The translations under genes were made by a program, and so were the position numbers. The notes under the pieces are model-generated. The model searched no databases and had not been told where the DNA came from. It worked only from the letters and a program-made list of their open reading frames with translations. A stretch of 64,000 nucleotides of DNA from positions 620,001 to 684,000 of the forward strand of contig CM102283.1 of assembly GCA_046563655.1 (NCBI GenBank), given 5' to 3'. Positions 4,136-59,008 of the stretch are shown here, in pieces. How positions within the stretch are numbered: position 1 is the first letter of the stretch; every line of letters starts with the position of its first letter. Origin of the DNA: Yuukianura sp. NJ FZ-2021 (taxonomy: Eukaryota).

Positions 4136-6198
4136 ATGCTTTCAAATTTTGTTTTCTTCAGTTCCTTTTTTATTGCAAATGCAGCTAGATTCACTCAAAC
4201 AGTTGAACAGGCTAAACCAACACTACAATCTGCACAACTGGTAAGAAGAATAACAGTTATTTAAATATTCAAGTAATTATTTTTTTAGAACATAACAAAA
4301 ATAATGGGTTTTTATAAAAGTGGTTTTTATACAGTGATTTTTGAGACAGGTACTTCGGCACGGCGAAAAAAATGCTGACGAAGGATATGAAAAAAGAAGT
4401 GGACTGTTGACTAATGTAAAAACTAAGCTTTAATTAATTTAATTCTGGTTATTCGGAAATTCATTATTAGAGTTACCATTGATTATTAGAGGAGCAATCA
4501 AAGATTATTCAAATAATAACTGCATAACTAATATAATGTAGACAGGAAAACAAGAGATGTACGACATAGGGAAGCTGGTCAGAGAGCGGTACACGGGCTT
4601 TTTGGAAGAAGATTATGACCCGGCAGAGGTGAAGATCATTACATCTGGAGCTTACAGATGCATTCAAAGTGGTACTCTATTTGCTTACGGTTTATATGAA
4701 GAATACAATTTAAATGCAAACTGGAGTAGCACTGTAGCAATTCCGTTCGACCCCATTCCAGTAGAACCAATTCCACCTCAAATTGACAAGGTAAAAACAT
4801 TGACCCTTGACTTTTGCTTTTTATAAACGAAGCGGCTCTTATTCTGTTTTCAGTACCTGCAACTAACTGATGATTGTCCAGCAAGGGACACTCTAAAGAC
4901 TCAAATCGGTTAGACTATGGGTTCTGGCCTAGTGAAACTTTTTTCTAAGTTTCTGGTCCAAATTTTGAAAAATATTTCTCAAAAATTCTCAAAAATTAGG
5001 AATGGGGGACCATTGGGGTCAAAACAAAAATTTTTGATCCAAACGTTCCAAACATGTTTGAATTGAAACATGGTGAGAAGTAAAAAAAAATACGAAAAAT
5101 TTGAGCCCGATAAAACAGAAAAAAGTTTCACTGCCTCAGAAATGATAGTCTAGCTCTCACATATCAGAATCATACGCAGATTCGCTGTTTGCAGCGGATT
5201 CATTTGCAAAAGATTTTCTGGACGCATGCGCAGCTAATACTCATAACGCATCCATACCTGTTAGTGACCAAACCAGCTTCAGCAGATACTTTGCTTGTTC
5301 TCAGTGGATTGAAGTGAGATCATTTTCGAAGAACTGAATATGTGTATGGAGAAATTTTTTCTAACTTATTACATACTTTTTGTAGCCTGCGAAGGGCCGT
5401 AAAATTGCCGCATGGGCAAAACCCTACGTTGATCTGTATAATGTATTTGGCTTGGAATTAGACCAAACGTTACGCTCTTCCAGGGAATTAGAACCGTTAC
5501 GAAAAGGACCATTTTTTGAAATGCTTTTTTAAACATGGAAAACGCGGAGTCAGACGTGATTGCTTACGTTTCACATGACTTTTCATTAAATGCTCTACGT
5601 GGGTTGTTTGAGCAACAAATGAAACAATTCCCAGGAAATCTACCACCAGCTTCCGCATTCTTTTTTGAGGTTCATCAACTACCGGAGTACAGCGAACCAG
5701 TCCTAGAGGTAAAAAGTTATACAAAAACAAAATATTGCCATAGTGCCAACGAAATGCTGACATTGACTTTTTCCGATTTTGTCAACAAGAAAGATTCGCT
5801 TTTTATTTACATTAGGTTTACTTCCGCCTTGGTTCATCTTCAGTTTTAACCAGAATTGAGAACATTCCTGGATGCAGCTCAATTTGCTTGGTTTCAAATT
5901 TTGGAATTATTGTGAAGCCCTACATTCCTGATGACTATGACAAACTGTGTAGAAGTAAGTCGAAAAAAAACTTTTAAAACTAACTGTTCACCTACAGTGA
6001 CAGGTACAGAAAGTAAGAGTCTCTAAATTTGATAATGTACTAGGTTTAGGTATAAGCAGCAGTGAGGGATATGTTTCCACAATCGGACCACTTGCGACCG
6101 TAATGTTGGTAGGGCTAGCAGCAGTTGTGATGAGCGTGGTGTGTATCGCTATGATAATGGTGTTCAGATCAAACGCTACTATGTATCAGAAGTTGTGA
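4136..6198 (+). CDS. Histidine acid phosphatase, lysosomal ACP2-like, copy 1; multi-exon, -1 homopolymer frameshift near 5530
   Basis: Signal peptide MLSNFVFF. VLRHGEK at 4351 (RHG motif), SGAYRCIQS, YVSHDFSL (HD motif). C-terminal TM helix followed by YQKL* (YxxPhi sorting signal). Confidence 0.8.
4909..5167 (+). mobile_element. MITE-like insertion inside a phosphatase exon, with GT..AG boundaries (copy 1)
   Basis: Absent from copy 3 (near 11494). Imperfect inverted ends tagactatgggttctggcctagtgaaactttttt / aaaaaagtttcactgcctcagaaatgatagtcta. Confidence 0.7.
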
Positions 6199-7331
6199 CA
6201 CGCCACTAAATAATTCTTTAACTGTATGTTCCAAAAAAAATTGAAGTCTGATTTCAGAAACTACAATTTGACCAAATATAATGCATTCAACAAATATATT
6301 ACCCAACAATTTAACATTTTTCTTGCCTTGTTGTTGGTGGAGGCAAGAAAAAAGATGTACATTTTCGGTAGTTTTCATTTTAAAATTCAAACACTACGTA
6401 TTTTTAAGTGTTGCCACGAGTAAAACTTTGAGGTTTGGTACATTCTTTTGTTTCGTTGATGTAATACGGTGTAACAGAATGTTTGTCATAAATAGTTTAC
6501 AACAAGTATTCGTTCTTTTATTCTTTCAAGCCTTGTTCTAGTTTTAGAAATTGTACGTCAACATTTCGAAGTTGACCTTGTTTTAAAATTTAATAATGGT
6601 AATTAAATTTCACGTGAAACATTTCGCGTGACGAAACTAGAATTGCAAACATACTGGTACTTTCAAAACAACGGAAAAAATAAAGAAAAGCTTTTCATAC
6701 ATGTTCTAGGAGTGAGTGTCCATCAAAAGATCGAAATCATGGCTCGAAATTTTATGGTGAATGTTCTCAATGTAGTTGTTAGAACGTTCATTTACTACAC
6801 GGCGGCCTGAATTGCTTTTACTTTCCTGGTCCGATTCTTTTTATTCTCTTACTTCCGCTACTTCACTGGTATACATTTTAGAAGAAATGGGCGGAGACTT
6901 TGATTTTTCAATGACTTTTCCAGACAACATTTAAAAACTGGTTACCAAAAAAACGTGAACGTCAGAATCAAAACATATTGTAACCAAGCAACATAACTGT
7001 ACTATTTCTGTTTAATTTTTGAACTTAAATAAATAAAAATTCAAACCGATTCAAAAGTTATGATTTTTTTAAATTAAGTTGTGTTTCCCATAGGCTAACT
7101 ACAGTTAGCCTAATGTATACATTCTTTTTAGGTTAAATGTCCAGAAGAGGTTTAATCTAAATGTTGATTAGATATAAATGGAAGCTTTAACTTTTTGTTA
7201 TGCAATTGCGCATTTCTACTACATGTGAAGCATGTGAACAAATTGGCCTTCGATAATTATTGGTGAATCAAAATGATAATTTCAGGTTTAGGTTTACCTT
7301 GTACGATTTTAGTAAATTCAAAAATTTAATC

Positions 7332-9368
7332 ATGCTTTCAAATTTTGTTTTCTTCAGAGTCTTTTTCATTGTAAATTTTTTACTTAAGTTGACTCAAACC
7401 GTTGAACAGGCTAAACCAACACTACGATCTGCACAACTGGTAATAAGAATAATAATAGTTGTTTATAATGTTAAATTAAATATTTTGTTTTAACATGATA
7501 ATAAGGTTTGGCAAAGGTTTAAATTGCTGACTTTTGAGGCAGGTATTTCGACATGGCGAAAAAAAAGCTGATGGTGCCTATGAGGAAAGAAGTGGACTAT
7601 TGACTAACGTAACTTTTACTAAAAGCTTAAAGTGACCATAAATTATTAGATGAAAAACTAAAGGTTATTAAAATAATAACTGTATAAATAATACAATGTA
7701 GACAGGAAAACAAGAGATGTATGACCTTGGGAAGCTTGCCAGAGAGCGGTACGCGGGCTTTTTACAAGAAGATTATGACCCGGCAGAGCTGAAGATCATT
7801 ACATCTGGGGCTTACAGATGCATTCAAAGTGGTGCTCTGTTTGCTTACGGTTTGTATGAAGAATACAATTTAAAAGCAAACTGGAGTAGCACTGTAGCAA
7901 TTCCGTTCGACCCCATTCCAGTAGAACCAATTCCACCTCAAATTGACAAGGTAAAAACATTGACCCTTGACTTTTGCTTTTTATAAACGAAGCGGCTCTT
8001 ATTCTGTTTTCAGTACCTGCAACTAACTGATGATTGTCCAGCAAGGGACACTCTAAAGACTCAAATCGGTTAGACTATGGGTTCTGGCCTAGTGAAACTT
8101 TTTTCTAAGTTTCTGGTCCAAATTTTGAAAAAAATATTTCTCAAAAATTCTCAAAAAAAATTAGGAATGGGGGACCATTGGGGTCAAAACAAAAATTTTT
8201 GATCCAAACGTTCCAAACATGTTTGAATTGAAACATGGTGAGAAGTAAAAAAAAATACGAAAAATTTGAGCCCGATAAAACAGAAAAAAGTTTCACTGCC
8301 TCAGAAATGATAGTCTAGCTCTCACATATCAGAATCATACGCAAATTCGCTGTTTGCAGCGGATTCATTCGCAAAAGATTTTCTGGACGCATGCGCAGCT
8401 AATACTCATAACGCATCCATACCTGTTAGTGACCAAACCAGCTTCAGCAGATACTTTGCTTGTTCTCAGTGGATTGAAGTGAGATCATTTTCGAAGAACT
8501 GAATATGTGTATGGAGAAATTTTTTCTAACTTATTACATACTTTTTGTAGCCTGCGAAGGGCCGTAAAATTGCCGCATGGGCAAAACCCTACGTTGATCT
8601 GTATAATGTATTTGGCTTGGAATTAGACCAAACGTTACGCTCTTCCAGGGAATTAGAACCGTTACGAAAAGGTCCATTTTTTGAAATGCTTTTTTTAAAC
8701 ATGGAAAACGCGGAGTCAGACGTGATTGCTTACGTTTCACATGACTTTTCATTAAATGCTCTACGCGGGTTGTTTGAGCAAGAAATGAAACAATTCCCAG
8801 GACATTTACCACCAGCTTCCGCATTCTTTTTGAGGTTCATCAACTACCGGAGTACAGCGAACCAGTCCTAGAGGTAAAAAGTTATACAAAAACAAAATAT
8901 TGCCATAGTGCCAACGAAATGCTGACATTGACTTTTTCCGATTTTGTCAACAAGAAAGATTCGCTTTTTATTTACATTAGGTTTACTTCCGCCTTGGTTC
9001 ATCTTCAGTTTTAACCAAAATCGAGAACATTCCTGAATGCAGTTCAATTTGCTTTGTTTCAAGTTTCCGAAGTATTGTGAAGCCCTACATTCCTGATGAC
9101 TATGACAAACTGTGTAGAAGTAAGTCGAAAAAAAACTTTTAAAACTAACTGTTCACCTACAGTGCAGTGACAGGTACAGAAAGTAAGTGTCTCTAAATTT
9201 GATAATGTACTAGGTTTAGGTATTCGCAGTAGCGAGGGATATGTTTCCACAATCGAACCACTTGCGACCGTAATGTTGGTAGGGCTAGCAGCAGTTGTGA
9301 TGAGCGTGGTGTGTATCGCTATGATAATGGTGTTCAGATCAAACGCTACTATGTATCAGAAGTTGTGA
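7332..9368 (+). CDS. Histidine acid phosphatase copy 2 (chimeric); -1 homopolymer frameshift near 8830
   Basis: Same exon structure: FRHGEK, YVSHDFSL, TM plus YQKL*. The 5' part matches copy 3 and the 3' part matches copy 1. Confidence 0.8.
8069..8332 (+). mobile_element. Same MITE-like GT..AG insertion, in copy 2
   Basis: Near-identical to 4909-5167 and at the same exon position. Confidence 0.7.
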
Positions 9369-10498
9369 CACGCCACTAAATAATTCTTTAACTGTATGTT
9401 CCAAAAATTGAAGTCTGATTCCAGAAACTACAATTTGACCAAATATGTATAATGCATTAAACAAATATATTACCCAACAATTTAACATTTTTCTTGCCTT
9501 GTTGTTGGTGGAGGCAAGAAAAAGATGTACATTTTCGGTAGTTTTCATTTTAAAATTCAAACACTACGTATTTTTAAGTGTTGCCACGAGTAAAACTTTT
9601 AGGTTTGGTACATTCTTGTTTGATTGATGTAATACGGTGTAACAGAATATTTGTCATAAATAATTTACAACAAGTATTCGTTCTTTTATTCTTTCAAGCC
9701 GTGTTCTAGTTTTAGAAATTGTACGTCAACATTTCGAAGTTGACCTTGTTTTAAAATTTAATAATGGTAATTAAATTTCACGTGAAACATTTCGCGTGAC
9801 GAAACTAGAATTGCAAACATACTGGTACTTTCAAAACAACGGAAAAAATAAAGAAAAGCTTTTCATACATGTTCTAGGAGTGAGTGTCCATCAAAAGATC
9901 GAAATCATGGCTCGAAATTTTATGGTGAATGTTCTCAATGTAGTTGTTAGAACGTTCATTTACTACACGGCGGCCTGAATTGCTTTTACTTTCCTGGTCC
10001 GATTCTTTTTATTCTCTTACTTCCGCTACTTCACTGGTATACATTTTAGAAGAAATGGGCGGAGACTTTGATTTTTCAATGACTTTTCCAGACAACATTT
10101 AAAAACTGGTTACCAAAAAACGTGAACGTCAGAATCAAAACATATTGTAACCAAGCAACATAACTGTACTATTTCTGTTTAATTTTTGAACTTAAATAAA
10201 TAAAAATTCAAACCGATTCAAAACTTATGATTTTTTTAAATTAAGTTGTGTTTCCCATAGGCTAACTACAGTTAGCCTAATGTATACATTCTTTTTAGGT
10301 TAAATGTCCAGAAGAGGTTTAATCTAAATGTTGATTAGATATAAATGGAAGCTTTAACTTTTTGTTATGCAATTGCGCATTTCTACTACATGTGAAGCAT
10401 GTGAACAAATTGGCCTTCGATAATTATTGGTGAATCAAAATGATAATTTCAGGTTTAGGTTTACCTTGTACGATTTTAGTAAATTCAAAAATTTAATC

Positions 10499-13400
10499 AT
10501 GCTTTCAAATTTTGTTTTCTTCAGAGTCTTTTTCATTGTAAATTTTTTACTTAAGTTGACTCAAACCGTTGAACAGGCTAAACCAACACTACGATCTGCA
10601 CAACTGGTAATAAGAATAATAATAGTTGTTTATAATGTTAAATTAAATATTTTGTTTTAACATAATAAGGTTTGGCAAAGGTTTAAATTGCTGACTTTTG
10701 AGGCAGGTATTTCGACATGGCGAAAAAAAAGCTGATGGTGCGTATGAGGAAAGAAGTGGACTATTGACTAACGTAAATTTTACTAAAAGCTTAAAGTGAC
10801 CATAAATTATTAGATGAAAAACTAAAGGTTATTAAAATAATAACTGTATAAATAATACAATGTAGACAGGAAAACAAGAGATGTATGACCTTGGGAAGCT
10901 TGCCAGAGAGCGGTACGCGGGCTTTTTACAAGAAGATTATGACCCGGCAGAGCTGAAGATCATTACATCTGGGGCTTACAGATGCATTCAAAGTGGGGCT
11001 CTATTTGCTTACGGCTTGTATGAAGAATACAATTTAAAAGCAAACTGGAGTAGCGCTGTAGCAATTCCGTTCGACCCCATTCCAGTCGAACCAATTCCGC
11101 CTCAAATTGACAAGGTAAAAAGATTGACTCAAGCTTCCTTATTGACAACGAAAAGTTGATTTTCTTTTAACAGGTTGAGTACTACCACGCTTCTTGACAG
11201 AAAAAAAAAGTTAGCATCAATTGGTACCAATCTGAAACAGTGGCACCAATTCGTATGGAAAACTTAAAAGATTCGGCTGTATTTTTATGACTACGTTGCT
11301 CTGAAATGAAAAGACACTTTTTCTTGTAAATTCGGAAAAACATGAGGTATTACCCAACCTGCTAACGAAATCAAATTTGAAAAACCTTGGTTAGGAATTT
11401 GACATTGGCCTTTTGTAACCGATTGTTCTTCTGTTTTCAGTACCTGCAACTAAGTGATGATTGTCCAGCAAGGGATACTCTAAAGAATCAAATCTCAGCA
11501 TCATCCGCAGATTCGCTGTTTGAAGTGGATTCATTTGCAAAAGATTTTCTGGACGCATTCTAATACTCATAACGCTTCCATGCTTCCTGACCAAACCAGC
11601 TTCAGTATATTCTTTGCTTGTTCTCAGTACATTGAAGTGAGGTTTTTTTAAACTGAATATAATGCGTCAAAAATATTTTTGCAGATTATATTTTTTGCAG
11701 CCTTCACAGGACCGTGAAATTGCCTCCTGTGTAACCCTATGTCGATTTGTATAATGTATTTGCCTTTGAAGTAGACCAAAGGTTACGCACTTGCATGGCA
11801 TTACAACAGTTACAAGAAGGACCATTTTTTGAAATGCTTTTTTCAAACATGGAAAACGCGGAGTCAGGCGTGATTGCTTACGCTACACATGACTTTTCAT
11901 TAAATGCTCTACGTGGATTGTTTGAGCAAGAAATGGAACAATTCCCGGGACTTCTACCAACAGCCTCAGCATTCTTTTTTGAAGTTCATCAACTACCGGA
12001 GTACAGCGAACCAGTCTTAGAGGTAAAAAGTTCTAATAAAAACGAAATATTGCCATACTGCCGACGAGAAGCTGGCATAGACTCTTTTTTCAACAATTTT
12101 TTCAACTGAAAGATCCGCTTTTTATTAAGTATCGTCAGATACTTATAGGGATCGTAATGTCCGTCTGTCCGTCTGTCTGTCCGTCTGTCTGTCCGTCCGT
12201 CTGTCCGGCTGTATACTAGCCCCAATATCTCTGGAAACACTGGACCGATTTTCAATCTGTCTTCACAGATGAACTTCACATGGTCCAGGGGTGAACAAGT
12301 TGTTTCCGGTTTGACCGGAAGTGGCCAACTTCCGGGTCAAAGGTCAAGGTCAAGTACATTTTCGTCGGAATGGCCTCTACATTTGTCCAATGGCCTATAC
12401 AAAAGTTGTTCATTTCAATGAGAGGAACAACTTTGCTGTAGGTGACCTTGACCTTTGACCTACGGTTCTGGAGATATAGACGCTAAAAGTTGCAAAATGG
12501 CGTCACTCATACTACGCGCGTCTATAACTCTGGAACCACTGAACCGATTTTCAATCTGTCTTCGCAGATGACCGTCACATGGTACAGGTGTGACTAATCG
12601 GTTTCTGGTTTGACCGGAAGTGGCCAAATTCCGGGTCAAAGGTCAACGTCAAGTACATTTTTAAGTATCGTCAGATACTTATAGGGATCGTATTGTCCGT
12701 CCGTATGTCTGTCTGTCCGTCCGTAATGCTTATAACTCGATAACCACTGCATTGATTTCTAAGCAGTTTTTTTTAATTAGTAACTACTAACCAGGTGACT
12801 AAAAATCAGTTTCTGGATTCATCTCAAGTGACCTCTATCGGTGTCAAAGGTCAATGTTATGCTCCATTTATATTACGGAAACGGACGGACAGACTCGGAA
12901 GGGGTTTGCGGAAATCCAACTTTGATGATCTTGAGTCACCTCTAACATGGTCAAATGTTAAAGTCATTTTTTGTTGTACAAGTAGGGAAACGGATAGACC
13001 GATTTGGAAGCGGTTTACGGGGATCCGATTTTGATCACTTCGAGTGACCTCTAACAGGGTTAAGGTTCAAGGTCCTCCTTTTCTCTATAATTCGGAAAAA
13101 GATGGACCGATTTGGAAGTGGTTTCCAGGCATCGTTGTTTGACGACGCGAGGACTAAGATTCCTATTTGACCTCAACTGACCTCTAACAATACCAGAGAT
13201 CTGATCTAGGTCAACAATATCCCGCGCGCGAACTCTCTATAATTGATCTGACGATACTTATTTACATCGTCTTGCAAGAAGTTTATTTACACTAGGTTTA
13301 CTTCCTTCTTGGTGCATCTTCAGTTTTAACCAAAATTGAAAACATTCCTGGATGCAGCTCAATTTGCTTTGTTTCAAATTTTGGAAGTATTGTGAAGCCC

Positions 13401-13658
13401 TACATTCCTGAGGACTATGACGAATTGTGCAAAAGTAAGTCAGAATAAAACTTTTTTTTAAACTAACTTCACCAAGACAAAGTAAATTTCTCTAACTTTG
13501 ACATTATACTAGATATTAGCTGCACTGAAGGATTTGGCTCCAGAATAGGATCGCTTGCAATTGTGATGCTGGTATCTTTGGCATTAGTTGTGAGCGTGGT
13601 GTGTATCGCTGTGATCGTGTTGTTCAGATCCAAAGGCAATGTGTACCAGAAGTTGTAA
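10499..13658 (+). pseudogene. Histidine acid phosphatase copy 3, probable pseudogene
   Basis: FRHGEK, YATHDFSL, YQKL*. A 5-bp deletion near 11559 gives TAA and there is a further -1 near 11735. An intron carries a 1.1-kb insertion. Confidence 0.7.
12125..13283 (+). mobile_element. Helentron-associated non-autonomous element (HINE/DINE-1-like) with two 5' ends (12125 and 12661)
   Basis: 5' hairpin aagtatc-gtca-gatactt, (GTCC/GTCT)n microsatellite, 3' subterminal inverted repeat tctgacgatactta, then short palindrome tcttgcaaga. Inserted in a T-rich site. Absent from the homologous intron of copies 1 and 2. Confidence 0.75.
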
Positions 13659-14015
13659 CACTATTAAGTAATTGTTTAACTGTAATTCCAAACAAAAAAT
13701 CCGAACTTTCTCCATTCCAGAAATTACAATTTTGTGACATTCATATGACAAAATTGTTAGATACATTTCATGAAATGGATTTAACAAGTTACATAAATAC
13801 AACATTTCAACATTATTTTTCATGCCGCACCACCAACAACCTCACACACCGTTGTTTTGGTTCGAATTTAACAATTCAGACAAATTTTTCGCATATTTTG
13901 GAGTGTTTTGTCACCAAATAAAAAATTGAGGTTTAAAAACCATGTTCGAGTTTCATTTAAATCATGTACTACGGGGTACAGAATGTTGGTAGTAAAGTAA
14001 TGAATCAGTTATACT

Positions 14016-20332: not shown

Positions 20333-22360
20333 ATGGTAGCCATTCCGAAAGCTCCTGCTATTGGAATTGACTTGGGCACGACATACTCTTGTGTTGGTGT
20401 CTGGCAACACGGAAAAGTGGAGATCATCGCCAACGACCAAGGCAACAGAACCACACCCAGCTATGTCGCTTTCACGGACACTGAAAGACTCATCGGTGAC
20501 GCCGCCAAGAACCAAGTCGCAATGAATCCAAAAAACACAATCTTCGATGCCAAAAGGTAAGTCTTTTTTAAAACAAAAAAAAAATCAAAAATTACGTTTT
20601 CAGGAAAACAAAAATCAGATTCCTTAATAATTTTTTTCAATTGCAGATTGATTGGACGAAAATATGACGATCCAAAGATTAAAGGCGACATGAAGCACTG
20701 GCCATTCAAAGTGCGAAACGAATCATCCAAACCAATTTTTGAAGTAGAATTTAAAGGAGAAACGAAGACGTTTTCTCCAGAAGAGATCAGTTCCATGGTC
20801 CTCTTGAAAATGAAGGAAACTGCCGAGGCTTTCTTGGGTCAACAGGTCAAGGACGCTGTCATCACAGTTCCAGCATACTTCAATGACTCACAGCGTCAAG
20901 CCACAAAAGACGCTGGAGCCATCGCTGGACTCAATGTCCTCAGAATCATCAACGAGCCAACTGCTGCTGCCCTTGCTTATGGACTGGACAAGAATCTCCA
21001 AGGGGAACGAAATGTTCTGATCTTTGACCTCGGCGGAGGAACTTTTGACGTTTCCATTCTGACTATTGACGACGGATCCCTCTTTTCTGTTCGCGCAACT
21101 GCAGGAAACACGCATCTCGGTGGAGAGGACTTTGACAACCGATTGGTCAACCACTTTATGGAAGAATTCAAACGGAAATACAAAAAAGACATCAGCTCAA
21201 ACGTCCGCGCTATTCGACGTCTGCGCACTGCCTGCGAACGGGCCAAAAGAACTCTGTCATCTAACGCAGAAGCAAGCATTGAAATAGACGCCCTTCACGA
21301 AGGAGTTGACTTTTACTCCAAAATTTCCCGCGCCAGATTTGAAGAACTTTGCTTGGACTTGTTTCGGTCCACGATGGAACCAGTAGAGAAAGCTCTGAAG
21401 GATGCCAAAATGGACAAAAGTCAAATTCATGACGTTGTGCTTGTTGGCGGGTCAACTCGAATTCCCAAAGTTCAAAAACTGCTTCAAGACTTTTTCAATG
21501 GGAAAGAACTGAACAAGTCCATCAATCCTGATGAAGCCGTTGCTTACGGTGCAGCAGTGCAAGGAGCCATTTTGAGCGGTGACAACTCTGCTTCACTTCA
21601 ACAGGTTCTGCTCGTCGATGTCGCTCCGTTGTCGCTTGGGATTGAAACTGCCGGAGGCGTCATGACAAAGATTATTGAGCGCAACTGCAAGATTCCCGCG
21701 AAACAGTCCAAGACCTTCACAACTTACTCTGACAACCAACCGGCAGTGACCATTCAAGTTTTTGAGGGTGAACGAGCGATGACCAAAGACAACAATTTGC
21801 TTGGCACTTTCAACCTAACCGGAATTCCACCCGCTCCACGCGGAGTTCCACAAATTGAAGTTTCCTTTGACATTGATGCCAATGGAATTTTGAATGTCTC
21901 CGCCAAGGATTCGAGTACTGGCAAATCAGAAAAGATTACAATTCGGAACGACAAGGGAAGACTCAGCAAGGAGCAAATTGAGAAGATGGTTGCGGATGCT
22001 GAGAAGTATCAAGCGGAAGACGAGAAGCAACAGGAGAAAGTCGCTGCTCGGAACAAACTGGAGTCGTATTTGTTCGGAGTCAAACAAGCGGCGGAAGAAG
22101 CTTCGGCGGACAAATTGACTGAATCGGAGAAGAAGGAAGTTGTGTCGAAATGCTCCGAAGTTCTCAAATGGCTGGACAACAACCTGTTAGCTGACAAAGA
22201 AGAGTACGATGACAAATTGAGTGAAATTCAGAAATATTGCGCTCCATTCATGACGAAGTTGCACGGAGGTCAGCGTACCGGAAGTCAGCAGCATGGTGGT
22301 GGGCGACCTAAAGCTAATGGACATTCTGGATCTGGCCCCACCATAGAAGAAGTGGACTAA
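20333..22360 (+). CDS. Hsp70: Cytosolic Hsp70, copy 1; intron 20557-20646
   Basis: [22 protein letters not shown] and [15 protein letters not shown] signatures. C-terminal GPTIEEVD. Confidence 0.97.
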
Positions 22361-24078
22361 AGTTTTCCAAAATAATTTAGATTTTAGCCACAAAATATTT
22401 AGAATCACTGTTTTTTAGTTTTTTTATTTACTACATAATGTGTTCATATGAAATGAAGTTCTTTCGCAAACACAAACGTATTTATTATCTACATTTTAGC
22501 TCCTACTTGTTAAAATGTAATTTGAAATTAATTACTGAAGTTAACTAATGCCATTCGAAACAAAAATAAAAACTCAAAGTTGGCAGAATTGGTTCTTGCG
22601 TTGGTCTGATTTTTTTTGAAATACATCATCGGCACTATCTGTTTCTCACATTCGGATTGTTTACAAAGTCATTCTAATTCAAGTCCAAATTAACCCTCCA
22701 CATAATTAATAATGAGGTGTTAGTATAATAATTTATAACAGTCACTTAATATCTTTAGAAATATATATTCGATTTTTTTTGTAATTTTGAAAATGTAAAA
22801 GTGATCAACTAAAAATCTTAACGTCGGATTATACTTAAGTTTCATATACAAAAAATTACACACTTTAAGTAGTACTGCGGCTTACTTAGTAGGTTTTGGA
22901 CTCAATTAAAAACGGTTAATTAAACCTTACTTTTATACTGGGACAACCCTAATTTGCGTTAATTGATTCACCTAGTTTAAAATAAACTCAATTCAAAATA
23001 TAAACTGCAGACATGTGCCTAGCCATGTTATACAGAATTATTACGCATCTGTTGATGAATATAGTTAACCATTTTCGATTATTGTTATTAAGTTCCAGTA
23101 CGCCATTTCTTCGACTGAATTACTGCAAAACGAATTACTCCGAAAGTCGAATTATTGGGAAAGGTGAATTACTACGGAATGTTATTTTAAAGTAAAAGTA
23201 AATTAGGTTCTGTCAGACATCATAAAGTAAGGTTTGGGTTAGACTTATTAATATCATCATTCATGAGCTTAGGTGAAAATCATTAAGACTAGATTTTGTT
23301 TGCTTAACGACTTTCTTTTAACGTAATTCGACTTTCAACGTAATTCATTTCGCAGTAATTCAGTCGCAGTAATTCGCTTGGTAGTAATTCATTCGACGAA
23401 ATATAATGGAATGAAACCTATAAGAAGTATTATTTACTGATTTAACCGTATATTGGAAATTTCGCACTTATAAGAGTGTACGTGTGAAGGAGAACGCATC
23501 TTCCAATCCGCCAAATTTTAAATCCTGTGCTGTCAATATTTTGATTTTCATATTTTCAGAATTAAAAATCGGTGTTTTCGCATATGTTTTTAACACTTTA
23601 GCTGTAGTAAGTTAGTAAAATCTTAAGTGTATGTGTAGCTGCAATTATCTTTCTTATCTTTATGAGTTATTACTATTCGAAACTGATTTTGGTTAGTGTA
23701 ATACGTAATAGTAGTATAATATAATAGTAGAAGTAGATTGTGTGGACGTGGAGGGATTGGACGCAAGCACAGCATACCGCGCAACAAACAAACTCTAATT
23801 CGGTAATTCTCTACCTAATTAACCTGAAGTAGAATTAAATATTAAATAGTGTAGTCACATTAACCCTTAGACTATAGGTAAACTTACTTAACTCTAAAGT
23901 TCATATAATCCCTCGAATGCGGAAACCAAGGACATAAAATAGTTGAAACATTTATGGTATAATTTCACTTTTCACAGATTTAAAATTCCTAAATTATATT
24001 ACTTACTAGGTATTCATTATTCATACGACCGGCGGGCGGGACCCCGTGACGGGAGGACCTGTCAAACTCATCCTGGGA

Positions 24079-29797: not shown

Positions 29798-31821
29798 TTA
29801 GTCCACTTCTTCTATGGTGGGGCCAGAATGTCCGTTAGCTCTAGGTCGCTCACCACAATGCTGCTGACTTCCGGTACGCTGACCTCCGTGCAACTTCGTC
29901 ATGAATGGAGCGCAATATTTCTGAATTTCACTCAATTTGTCATCGTACTCTTCTTTGTCAGCCAAAAGATTGTTGTCCAACCATTTCAGAACTTCGGAGC
30001 ATTTCGTTACAACTTCCTTCTTCTCCGATTCAGTCAATTTGTCCGCCGAAGCTTCTTCCGCCGCTTGTTTGACTCCGAACAAATACGACTCTAATTTGTT
30101 CCGAGCAGCGACTTTCTCCTGTTGCTTCTCGTCTTCCGCTTGATACTTCTCAGCATCCGCAACCATCTTCTCAATTTGCTCCTTGCTGAGTCTTCTCTTG
30201 TCGTTCCGAATTGTAATCTTTTCTGATTTGCCAGTACTCGAATCCTTGGCGGAGACATTCAAAATTCCATTGGCGTCAATGTCAAAGGAAACTTCAATTT
30301 GTGGAACTCCGCGTGGAGCGGGTGGAATTCCGGTTAGGTTGAAAGTGCCAAGTAAATTGTTGTCTTTGGTCATCGCTCGTTCACCTTCAAATACTTGAAT
30401 GGTCACTGCCGGTTGGTTGTCCGAATAAGTCGTGAAGGTCTTGGACTGTTTCGCGGGAATTTTGCAGTTGCGCTCAATAATCTTTGTCATGACGCCTCCG
30501 GCAGTTTCAATCCCAAGTGACAGCGGAGCGACATCGACGAGCAGAACTTGTTGAAGTGAGGCGGAGTTGTCACCGCTCAAAATGGCTCCTTGCACTGCTG
30601 CACCGTAAGCAACGGCTTCATCAGGATTGATGGACTTGTTCAGTTCTTTCCCATTGAAAAAGTCTTGAAGCAGTTTTTGAACTTTGGGAATTCGAGTTGA
30701 CCCGCCAACAAGCACAACGTCATGAATTTGACTTTTGTCCATTTTGGCATCCTTGAGAGCCTTCTCCACTGGTTCCATTGTGGACCGAAACAAGTCCAAG
30801 CAAAGTTCTTCAAATCTGGCGCGGGAAATTTTGGAGTAAAAGTCAACTCCTTCGTGAAGGGCGTCGATTTCAATGCTTGCTTCTGCGTTAGATGACAGAG
30901 TTCGTTTGGCCCGTTCGCAGGCAGTGCGCAGACGTCGAATAGCGCGGACGTTTGAACTGATGTCTTTCTTGTATTTTCGTTTGAATTCTTCCATGAAGTG
31001 GTTGACCAATCGGTTGTCAAAGTCTTCTCCACCGAGATGCGTGTCTCCTGCAGTTGCGCGAACAGAAAAGAGAGATCCGTCATCAATAGTCAGAATGGAG
31101 ACGTCAAAAGTTCCTCCTCCGAGATCAAAGATCAGAACATTTCGTTCTCCTTGGAGATTCTTGTCCAGTCCATAAGCAAGGGCAGCAGCAGTTGGCTCGT
31201 TGATGATTCTGAGAACGTTGAGTCCAGCGATGGCTCCAGCGTCTTTTGTGGCTTGACGCTGTGAGTCATTGAAGTATGCTGGAACTGTGATGACAGCGTC
31301 CTTGACCTGTTGACCCAAGAATGCCTCGGCAGTTTCCTTCATTTTCAAGAGGACCATGGAACTGATCTCTTCTGGAGAAAACGTCTTCGTTTCTCCTTTA
31401 AATTCCACTTCAAAAATTGGTTTGGATGATTCGTTTCGCACTTTGAATGGCCAGTGCTTCATGTCGCCTTTAATCTTCGGATCGTCATATTTTCGTCCAA
31501 TCAATCTGCAATTCAAAAAAAATATTAAGGAATCTGTTTTTTTTTTGTTTTCCTGAAAAATATAATTTTTGAGTTTTCGTTTTCAAACAAAACTTACCTT
31601 TTAGCGTCGAAGATTGTGTTTTTTGGATTCATTGCGACTTGGTTCTTGGCAGCGTCTCCGATGAGTCTTTCAGTGTCTGTGAAAGCGACATAGCTGGGTG
31701 TGGTTCTGTTGCCTTGGTCGTTGGCGATGATCTCCACTTTTCCGTGTTGCCAGACACCGACGCAGGAGTATGTTGTGCCCAAGTCAATTCCAATAGCAGG
31801 AGCTTTCGCAATGGCTACCAT
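29798..31821 (-). CDS. Hsp70: Cytosolic Hsp70, copy 2; intron 31506-31597
   Basis: All three Hsp70 signatures and GPTIEEVD. Near-identical to copies 1 and 3. Confidence 0.97.
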
Positions 31822-56736: not shown

Positions 56737-56978
56737 TAAAGAGAAAAAGTTTAAAGAAATTGTAGAAAAATTGAAAAGTAGAGAAAAAATTAGACCAACA
56801 GCAAAAGTTTTGCTAACTTTAATTTATTTTTGTTTTAACCAGTAGGAACTGAAATGTATATAATAAATACTACCTTATTAGTAGTAAATAGTAGTAAATT
56901 ATAAATGGTAAATACAAAACCTAAAAAAAGTCATAATTCTAAATATTTTGACTAAAGTCTAAATAATTTTGGAAAACT

Positions 56979-59008
56979 TTAGTCCACTTCTTCTATGGTG
57001 GGGCCAGATGCAGAATGTCCATTAGCTTTAGGTCGCTCACCACCATGCTGCTGACTTCCGGCACGTTGACCTCCATGCAACTTCGTCATGAATGGAGCGC
57101 AATATTTTTGAATTTCACTAAATTTGTCATCATACTCTTCTTTGTCAGCCAAAAGGTTGTTGTCCAGCCACTTCAGAACTTCGGAGCATTTGGACACAAC
57201 TTCCTTCTTCTCCGATTCAGACAATTTGTCCGCCGAAGCTTCTTTCGCCGCTTGTTTGACTCCGAACAAATACGACTCCAATTTGTTCCGAGCAGCGACT
57301 TTCTCCTGTTGCTTCTCGTCTTCCGCTTGATACTTCTCAGCATCCGCAACCATCTTCTCAATTTGCTCCTTGCTGAGTCTTCCCTTGTCGTTCCGAATTG
57401 TAATCTTTTCTGATTTGCCAGTACTCGAATCCTTGGCGGAGACATTCAAAATTCCATTGGCGTCAATGTCAAAGGAAACTTCAATTTGTGGAACTCCGCG
57501 TGGAGCGGGTGGAATTCCGGTTAGGTTGAAAGTGCCAAGTAAATTGTTGTCTTTGGTCATCGCTCGTTCACCCTCAAAAACTTGAATGGTCACTGCCGGT
57601 TGGTTGTCAGAGTAAGTTGTGAAAGTCTTGGACTGTTTCGCCGGAATTTTGCAGTTGCGCTCAATAATCTTTGTCATGACGCCTCCGGCAGTTTCAATCC
57701 CAAGTGACAGCGGAGCGACATCGACGAGCAGAACTTGTTGAAGTGAAGCAGAGTTGTCACCGCTCAAAATGGCTCCTTGCACTGCTGCACCGTAAGCAAC
57801 GGCTTCATCAGGATTGATGGACTTGTTGAGTTCTTTGCCATTGAAGAAGTCTTGAAGCAGTTTTTGAACTTTGGGAATTCGAGTTGACCCGCCAACAAGA
57901 ACAACGTCATGAATTTGACTTTTGTCCATTTTGGCATCCTTCAGAGCTTTCTCTACTGGTTCCATCGTGGACCGAAACAAGTCCAAGCAAAGTTCTTCAA
58001 ATCTGGCGCGGGAAATTTTGGAGTAAAAGTCAACTCCTTCGTGAAGGGCGTCGATTTCAATGCTTGCTTCTGCGTTAGATGACAGAGTTCGTTTGGCCCG
58101 TTCGCAGGCAGTGCGCAGACGTCGAATAGCGCGGACGTTTGAGCTGATGTCTTTCTTGTATTTTCGTTTGAATTCTTCCATGAAGTGGTTGACCAATCGG
58201 TTGTCAAAGTCCTCTCCACCGAGATGCGTGTCTCCTGCAGTTGCGCGAACAGAAAAGAGGGATCCGTCGTCAATAGTCAGAATGGAGACGTCGAAAGTTC
58301 CCCCTCCGAGATCGAAGATCAGAACATTTCGTTCCCCTTGGAGATTCTTGTCCAGTCCATAAGCAAGGGCAGCAGCAGTTGGCTCGTTGATGATTCTGAG
58401 GACATTGAGTCCAGCGATGGCTCCAGCGTCTTTTGTGGCTTGACGCTGTGAGTCATTGAAGTATGCTGGAACTGTGATGACAGCGTCCTTGACCTGTTGA
58501 CCCAAGAATGCCTCGGCAGTTTCCTTCATTTTCAAGAGGACCATGGAACTGATCTCTTCTGGAGAAAACGTCTTCGTTTCTCCTTTAAATTCCACTTCAA
58601 AAATTGGTTTGGATGATTCGTTTCGCACTTTGAATGGCCAGTGCTTCATGTCGCCTTTAATCTTCGGATCGTCATATTTTCGTCCAATCAATCTGCAATT
58701 CAAAAAAAATATTAAGGAATCTGTTTTTTTTTTGTTTTCCTGAAAAATATAATTTTTGAGTTTTCGTTTTCAAACAAAACTTACCTTTTAGCGTCGAAGA
58801 TTGTGTTTTTTGGATTCATTGCGACTTGGTTCTTGGCAGCGTCTCCGATGAGTCTTTCAGTGTCTGTGAAAGCGACATAGCTGGGTGTGGTTCTGTTGCC
58901 TTGGTCGTTGGCGATGATCTCCACTTTTCCGTGTTGCCAGACACCGACGCAGGAGTATGTTGTGCCCAAGTCAATTCCAATAGCAGGAGCTTTCGGAATG
59001 GCTACCAT
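56979..59008 (-). CDS. Hsp70: Cytosolic Hsp70, copy 3; intron 58693-58784
   Basis: All Hsp70 signatures and GPTIEEVD. Confidence 0.97.

Follow-up and report, generated by a model that had tools for sequence, protein, structure and literature searches.

An old Merlin-type MITE in a coding exon of a Yuukianura acid phosphatase-like gene as a candidate transposon-derived intron

Can a DNA transposon that landed in a coding exon have furnished the gene with an intron? The question is raised by a 64,000-nucleotide stretch of Yuukianura sp. NJ FZ-2021 (positions 620,001 to 684,000 of contig CM102283.1, assembly GCA_046563655.1; hereafter the window), which carries three tandem histidine acid phosphatase-like gene copies (Table 1). 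As the initial annotation had described, copies 1 and 2 have an exon interrupted by an extra segment, 259 bp long in the former and 264 bp long (8069-8332) in the latter, and copy 3 is free of it. The host genome comprises 98.7 Mb in 22 contigs; TTAGG, the usual arthropod telomere repeat, was found at two of the four contig ends read.

Exon 3 of copy 1 matches PF00328 (E 1e-11) and gave no PDB match, and a search of the Atlas added nothing beyond confirmation of the family. Hydrophobic stretches at the two ends of the copy 1 protein, read by eye, constitute a putative signal peptide and membrane anchor. RHGxRxP and HD, which we take to be the catalytic motifs of branch 2 histidine acid phosphatases, are retained as RHG and HD, with Lys in place of the second Arg and the Pro absent (window 4350-4415). 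Both C5 paralogs, which are intact genes, show the same changes, and this may be an acid phosphatase subfamily whose activity or substrate differs, as judged from the altered motif. The best of 104 protein-library representatives is 63% identical and none derives from the copy 1 gene; a search of the longer proteins of the library with the acid phosphatase copy returned no match. In the assembly sequence all three copies contain frameshifts, one each in copies 1 and 2 and two in copy 3. The 1-bp T-run deletions of copies 1 and 2 lie at different positions and have no connection with the insert; they may have turned both copies into null alleles. As a control for assembly error, homopolymer indels were set against substitutions, giving 8 to 37 at this locus, 6 to 35 for a second young duplication and 0 to 46 for a third pair, and the T-run deletions can be read either as assembly errors or as real lesions.

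The inverted ends reported for the insert are real, as the fold has a z value of -6.1 that none of 200 shuffles equaled, but the limits of the element are those given in Table 1 rather than 4909-5167: it begins one base upstream of 4909, on GG. It is flanked by an 8-bp target duplication, absent from the initial annotation, that matches at six of eight positions. The left end is GG and the right end has decayed at two of seven bases. The proposed transposon origin is borne out by the terminal inverted repeat (TIR) family, the target duplication and a transposase-bearing relative. Merlin elements are described as having GG termini, 8-9-bp duplications, long TIRs, internal tandem repeats and a DDE_Tnp_IS1595 transposase (PMC8101967); the insert and its family share these features, with the transposase found in a related full element. 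The insert itself differs in being non-coding, 248 bp long and asymmetric, with its right end decayed. By sequence comparison it is an internally deleted Merlin MITE, an assignment made because of the GG ends, the 8-9-bp duplications and the TIR likeness to an element with a PF12762 match. On the same three characters a hAT, P or Mutator origin was rejected.

Table 1 Features of the acid phosphatase-like gene copies and of the insert, in window coordinates.
Feature	Position	Strand	Remarks
Copy 1, histidine acid phosphatase-like gene (branch 2)	4136..6199	+	Exon model, 8 exons with the predicted new intron counted
Target-site duplication, left copy, 8 bp, exonic	4900..4907	+	
Internally deleted Merlin-type MITE, 248 bp	4908..5155	.	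Left arm of ~70 bp joined to right arm of ~170 bp
Predicted new GT-AG intron, 259 bp, phase 1	4909..5167	+	Donor is element base 2, acceptor is old exon; in frame, stop-free
In-frame TAG within element	4911..4913	+	Read-through translation
Target duplication, right copy, intronic under the predicted model	5156..5163	+	2 of 8 bases changed
Old exon bases (Ser codon and one G) co-opted as predicted acceptor	5164..5167	+	Alignment to copy 3
Two rival in-frame acceptors	5177..5194	+	Ends at 5179 (destroyed in copy 2) and 5194 (best score)
Copy 1 T run, one base short, frameshift	5525..5530	+	Copy 2 in frame at the same place
Copy 2, chimera, 5' part copy-3-like, 3' part copy-1-like	7332..9369	+	Crossover ~7875-7891
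Same element in copy 2	8068..8320	.	0 substitutions in 259 aligned intron bases versus copy 1; two A-run length differences
Copy 2 T run, one base short, frameshift	8827..8831	+	Copy 1 in frame at the same place
Copy 3, insert-free paralog, pseudogene	10499..13659	+	5-bp deletion near 11558, 2-bp deletion near 11732
Empty site in copy 3, single target copy then future acceptor bases	11487..11498	+	Alignment

A genome search with the insert, in which 40 of 65 candidates were scored, gave 69 matches, the window copies at 100 and 98% and long matches elsewhere at 72-76%. Pattern searches and a profile run yielded at least 89 element ends, comprising 33 complete elements with target duplications (paired with at most two mismatches) and 23 unpaired ends; these counts are lower bounds, taken from fetched loci among the pattern matches listed, and some copies are segmental duplicates. 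Most complete elements are ~690 bp long with GG..CC ends, and the window insert is the shortest. The 31 other complete copies all have GG..CC ends (L063 after a one-base shift); their target duplications measure 8 bp in 26 and 9 bp in five, and are perfect in 28. The related full element is 4192 bp long (C5:10726107-10730298), encodes the DDE_Tnp_IS1595 transposase (PF12762, E 5e-14), and has 718-bp inverted ends, which resemble the MITEs at 84% over 300 bp and the insert at 75% over 124 bp. With different bases at its termini (GGGTGGA subfamily), this element is perhaps not the exact mobiliser. Open frames were observed at three Merlin transposase loci (L044:2608-6799, L046:2399-6246 and L045). 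Very long TIRs holding 125-bp tandem units, together with perfect target duplications, characterize L044 and L046, and by these structures both elements may have been recently active.

The reading of the insert as an intron gain rather than a loss is upheld by the paralogs. In the two intact C5 paralogs and the distant canonical C4 paralog the exon is unbroken at the site and the flanking introns lie at the same positions; the insert is a gain because copy 3 and these three more distant paralogs have a continuous exon. The reverse course, in which a MITE fell into an old intron that was then lost from copy 3, is barely credible: it runs against all four continuous paralogs, the 8 bp that were duplicated belong to the exon, the C5 proteins agree in length with the empty site and not with the spliced form, and the paralogs compared yielded no evidence in its favor. 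Copy 2 resembles copy 3 as far as the position equivalent to 4715 and resembles copy 1 from 4731 onward, which places a crossover in exon 3. The alignment shows copy 2 as a later product of unequal crossing-over between copies 1 and 3; as copy 2 is a recombinant, copies 1 and 2 record one insertion, and two independent insertions are ruled out.

The GT at 4909 and the CAG at 5165-5167 are present exactly where they had been annotated. Translation confirms that removal of 4909-5167 is in frame and leaves a protein one residue shorter than that of copy 3. The GT would serve as a donor at the element edge, with the acceptor 12 nt past the element. In the unspliced insert a stop (Table 1) precedes the HD motif and the C-terminal hydrophobic stretch, and because read-through meets it, a useful donor must precede 4911. 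Three acceptors are stop-free and in frame from 4909, namely 5167, 5179 and 5194, with the loss of 1, 5 and 10 codons, respectively, and 5167 is the first of them. Donors deeper in the element were ruled out, as the stop at 4911 would then be retained. Stops would also be retained with the acceptors at 5077, 5080 and 5125, and the frame would be lost with those at 5105, 5118, 5139, 5148 and 5153. By itself this geometry is weak evidence because ~9-12% of the 2419 exon positions tested offer a suitable acceptor.

Splice sites were scored with a small matrix derived from 26 modelled introns of the host genome, from which the copy 3 introns and one further intron were excluded. The 4909 donor is weak: it beats one of the 26 real donors and is equaled or bettered by 28 of the 98 other GTs in the gene; one of the 26 modelled introns has a native GTTAG donor. 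The 5167 acceptor is also weak, beating 3 of 26 (13 of 21 on a smaller set), and 5194 beats all 26. The branch-like ctctcac of the initial annotation exists, but it falls in the right-hand duplicate, which is mutated, and its A is only 8 nt from the intron end. Such a distance is close for a branch point. These scores are relevant to a variant in which the spliceosome uses the same donor with 5194 as the main acceptor (or 5179 in copy 1) and the CTCAC of the mutated duplicate as branch point, at a cost of 10 or 5 residues. Both acceptors are in frame and stop-free, 5194 has the top score, and CTCAC lies 20 and 35 nt from 5179 and 5194, compared with 8 nt from 5167. Nevertheless, this variant appears quite unlikely. 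Copy 1 carries no derived change across 5168-5194: all three differences from copy 3 are derived in copy 3, and copy 1 equals both outgroups (P ~0.02 if the stretch were intronic). In the outgroups, too, the exon includes the pyrimidine run and AG at 5194, and the 5179 AG is lost in copy 2. The affected helix, compared among the 20 measurable homologs of the 50 long enough of 104 hits with the anchor matched by eye, keeps a length within the range of 17 of 20 after the loss of one codon, whereas the shortened helix of the variant falls below 19 of 20.

The preferred junction of 4908 with 5168 also has to be seen in the context of RNA structure. In the strong predicted RNA hairpin (z -6.1) the donor is base-paired, as are the three competing AGs that lie nearest within the element. 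The CTAAC-like end motif of the element is mutated and now supplies a frameshifting AG at 5153. The sense strand folds better than its complement (z -6.1 versus -4.7), and all five transitions between the arms (4908-4943 versus 5120-5155) keep G-U pairs on the sense strand, an observation made post hoc and of a kind that strand-biased mutation could also produce; these transitions are a weak hint that an RNA hairpin was retained. Such a hairpin might instead trigger SOS splicing by AKAP17A, CAAP1 and RTCB, either on its own or combined with a spliceosomal acceptor, and the resulting ends would be mixed, some of them in frame. The hairpin strength and the G-U-preserving transitions suit this pathway, as does the presence in the genome of two AKAP17A-family loci (L109 and L110; G000:C4:3482134 and C4:3779526) and one CAAP1-family match, and 90-100% excision of exonic Tc1 has been reported (PMC12779559). 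The likeness to the published system is that of an exonic DNA transposon with pairing inverted ends in a host with AKAP17A- and CAAP1-family genes. In contrast, the products described in that source are ragged, with scattered sites that are rarely GU-AG and carry indels, whereas the insert has a single exact GT-AG solution; its arms are 25% diverged, with 4 of 36 terminal pairs broken, and the system is described there for C. elegans and human cells (PMC12779559). SOS splicing as the explanation is given a small chance, and removal of the insert by the spliceosome is considered likely from the sequence features.

Whether the gene stayed in use after the insertion depends on the age of the element. 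Its arms differ at 9 of 36 terminal bases, compared with a median of 0 in the 31 other copies (25 of 31 have at most two differences, and two have 12 and 14), and its right arm is 15% from the nearest relative, where the median is 3%. The implied per-lineage depth of the insertion is 0.15 (range 0.07-0.31), a figure based on 36 + 8 sites and one nearest-relative distance. For the old introns, 118 of 487 sites distinguish copy 1 from copy 3, which again corresponds to 0.15 per lineage, and by this measure the insertion appears to date from about the time when copies 1 and 3 split. A dead gene would be expected to accumulate ~9 stops and 15 frameshifts at d = 0.145, and ~4 and 7 at the lower bound of 0.065, whereas nonsense changes are absent from copy 1 and its only lesion is one 1-bp deletion (P of 1e-9 and 3e-4 at the two depths). 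The dN/dS between copies 1 and 3 is 0.43 over 399 codons (p 9e-6), 0.51 for the 3' half (p 0.003) and 0.70 for exons 4-7 alone (p 0.21). These ratios are inflated because copy 3 decays, with 18 polarised amino-acid changes in its 3' half versus 9 on copy 1. Presence of an old element in a gene with no nonsense change and a dN/dS of 0.43 argues for long survival by splicing, as far as substitution patterns can indicate it.

The test is blurred because gene conversion can erase lesions. The 3' halves of copies 1 and 2 have 21 exon differences versus 1 in 596 intron bases (p 1e-4). Many copy 2 bases in window 8981-9369, compared with 5816-6199, match neither neighbour, and these patches are read as pointing to conversion from an allele or copy absent from the assembly. 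The dN/dS between copies 1 and 2 (0.30, p 0.013) was set aside as a clean post-insertion test, as the exon-only patches look like conversion. It may accordingly be asked whether the insertion was never usefully spliced and knocked out copy 1, the exons looking conserved because the insertion is more recent than estimated or because conversion from working alleles renewed them. The conversion patches, the weak splice scores, the redundancy provided by two intact C5 paralogs and the frameshifts in all three copies favor such an outcome, as does a synonymous divergence in exons 4-7 (0.13) below that of the introns (0.24), where dN/dS is not significant. We regard it as unlikely, given three separate age signs (arms, target duplication and nearest relative), no nonsense substitution in copy 1 or copy 2 when the frames are read with x at the breaks, and copy 1 exons still 12% from copy 3 and hence not homogenised with it; copy 3 itself shows what local decay looks like.

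The following course of events would account for the observations. Exon 4 of copy 1 received a non-autonomous Merlin element, whose insertion duplicated 8 bp, as the alignment shows. Its end, G|GT, would give the exon one G, and its second base would start a spliceosomal donor. Four bases beyond the duplicate, the TCAG of the exon would become the acceptor. In the predicted translation the element G replaces the lost G, making the protein one serine shorter. Selection would have acted on the gene for most of the time since the insertion, which would need removal of the insert from the RNA, and ~440 internal bases would have been lost by the element before or after it inserted. Later unequal crossing-over between the tandem genes, visible in the alignment, produced copy 2. 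The comparisons show that an old Merlin MITE inserted once into a coding exon and that an exact in-frame GT-AG solution exists there, and a single transposon-derived intron arising by a known mechanism is the probable outcome. That the insert became an intron spliced precisely at 4908/5168 is somewhat favored.

A carried donor, a co-opted acceptor and a lost codon form a pattern described for introners in PMC9860276 and PMC11282704. The donor-carrying introners in these sources (the Micromonas pusilla type in PMC11282704; Chrysochromulina and the codon-deleting cases in PMC9860276) resemble the window insert as TIR elements that duplicate their target in a coding exon, with an element donor, a host acceptor and a small in-frame length change. 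They differ in that the window insert is one old event in an ordinary MITE family instead of one of many similar introns; it has an 8-bp duplication with the acceptor just beyond, it sits in a terrestrial-type animal host, and its splicing is predicted from sequence. The best overall fit is with the singular introns of PMC11282704, in which one insertion turned intron, here a predicted one; the window case is distinguished by a neighboring paralog with the empty site and by an element family that can be dated within the genome. With respect to introner criteria, the insertion lies in a coding exon at a site with no older intron (four paralogs are continuous), and its edges coincide with frame-restoring, weakly scoring splice sites. 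However, introner families are defined by similar introns at several loci (PMC12130899), and none was found at unrelated loci among the 31 other complete copies, a count that is a lower bound.

PMC9860276 reports introners from only two groups of animals, and a supplement of PMC12130899 gives zero introner families for three springtail species. Neither introner survey names Merlin in its main text, and a term search of 14 supplement files of PMC12130899 returned only an automated terminus hit in a dinoflagellate family finally classed unknown. A literature search for springtail introners found no paper, and one combining Merlin or Collembola with transposon-driven intron gain found none on topic, as judged by title. 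Taken alone, the locus represents one event by a known route, with Merlin as the source not found reported in the literature searched. Clear cases of intron gain in which the source element is known and both a target duplication and a paralog with the empty site are preserved are rare among land animals. Should RNA bear out the junction, Merlin would join the intron-making transposons, and the locus would provide a simple reporter for spliceosomal versus SOS removal.

The designation introner-like does not extend to the family, as the other Merlin MITE copies mostly avoid coding DNA. An open frame of 100 nt on both sides was found at 3 of 33 empty sites, versus 30% of 1914 background positions, in a test that misses short exons, that of the window included. 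Pfam searches gave three hits for the 37 frames touching complete copies and one weak hit for the 16 frames touching unpaired ends. Of the 31 other complete copies, one lies in an exon, in a gustatory-receptor-like gene, and has no exact removal; short unrecognised exons escape this test. On present evidence the Merlin MITE family is not a working introner and is introner-like at one site only. The gustatory-receptor-like gene is otherwise open, and its exon 2 contains a young 373-bp copy with a perfect 8-bp duplication (L058:2067-2439; G000:C5:6115766-6116138). This copy offers the same G|GT donor with no exact acceptor, the in-frame options adding 13-40 or removing 5-13 residues, and could represent either a null allele or the same process at an earlier point. 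A broader scheme, in which Merlin ends (the G|GT donor, with its mirror-image CTAAC branch-like motif opposite) are ready-made intron starters, a land arthropod gains introns in ones and twos from many unrelated MITE families, and SOS splicing keeps genes alive until a spliceosomal junction is fixed, is speculative and rather unlikely. If true, diffuse intron gain from many MITE families would be missed by introner searches that cluster by similarity.

Other family copies and repeats were noted near genes. One copy (L019:989-1681) lies in a short intron of an RRM gene, presumably hnRNP L-like, ~30 bases from the acceptor, and another (L082:2093-2992) just upstream of an EF-hand exon. In the window, intron 3 of copy 3 has an additional 260 bp (~11129-11394) missing in copies 1 and 2, and its intron 6 holds a 1.16-kb insertion (~12121-13280) with short sub-terminal inverted repeats and a 4-base microsatellite, which we take to resemble DINE/Helentron-type elements. 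A 1.7-1.8-kb repeat is present in three 97%-identical copies, in both orientations, at 20606-22396, 29823-31546 and 56943-58733.
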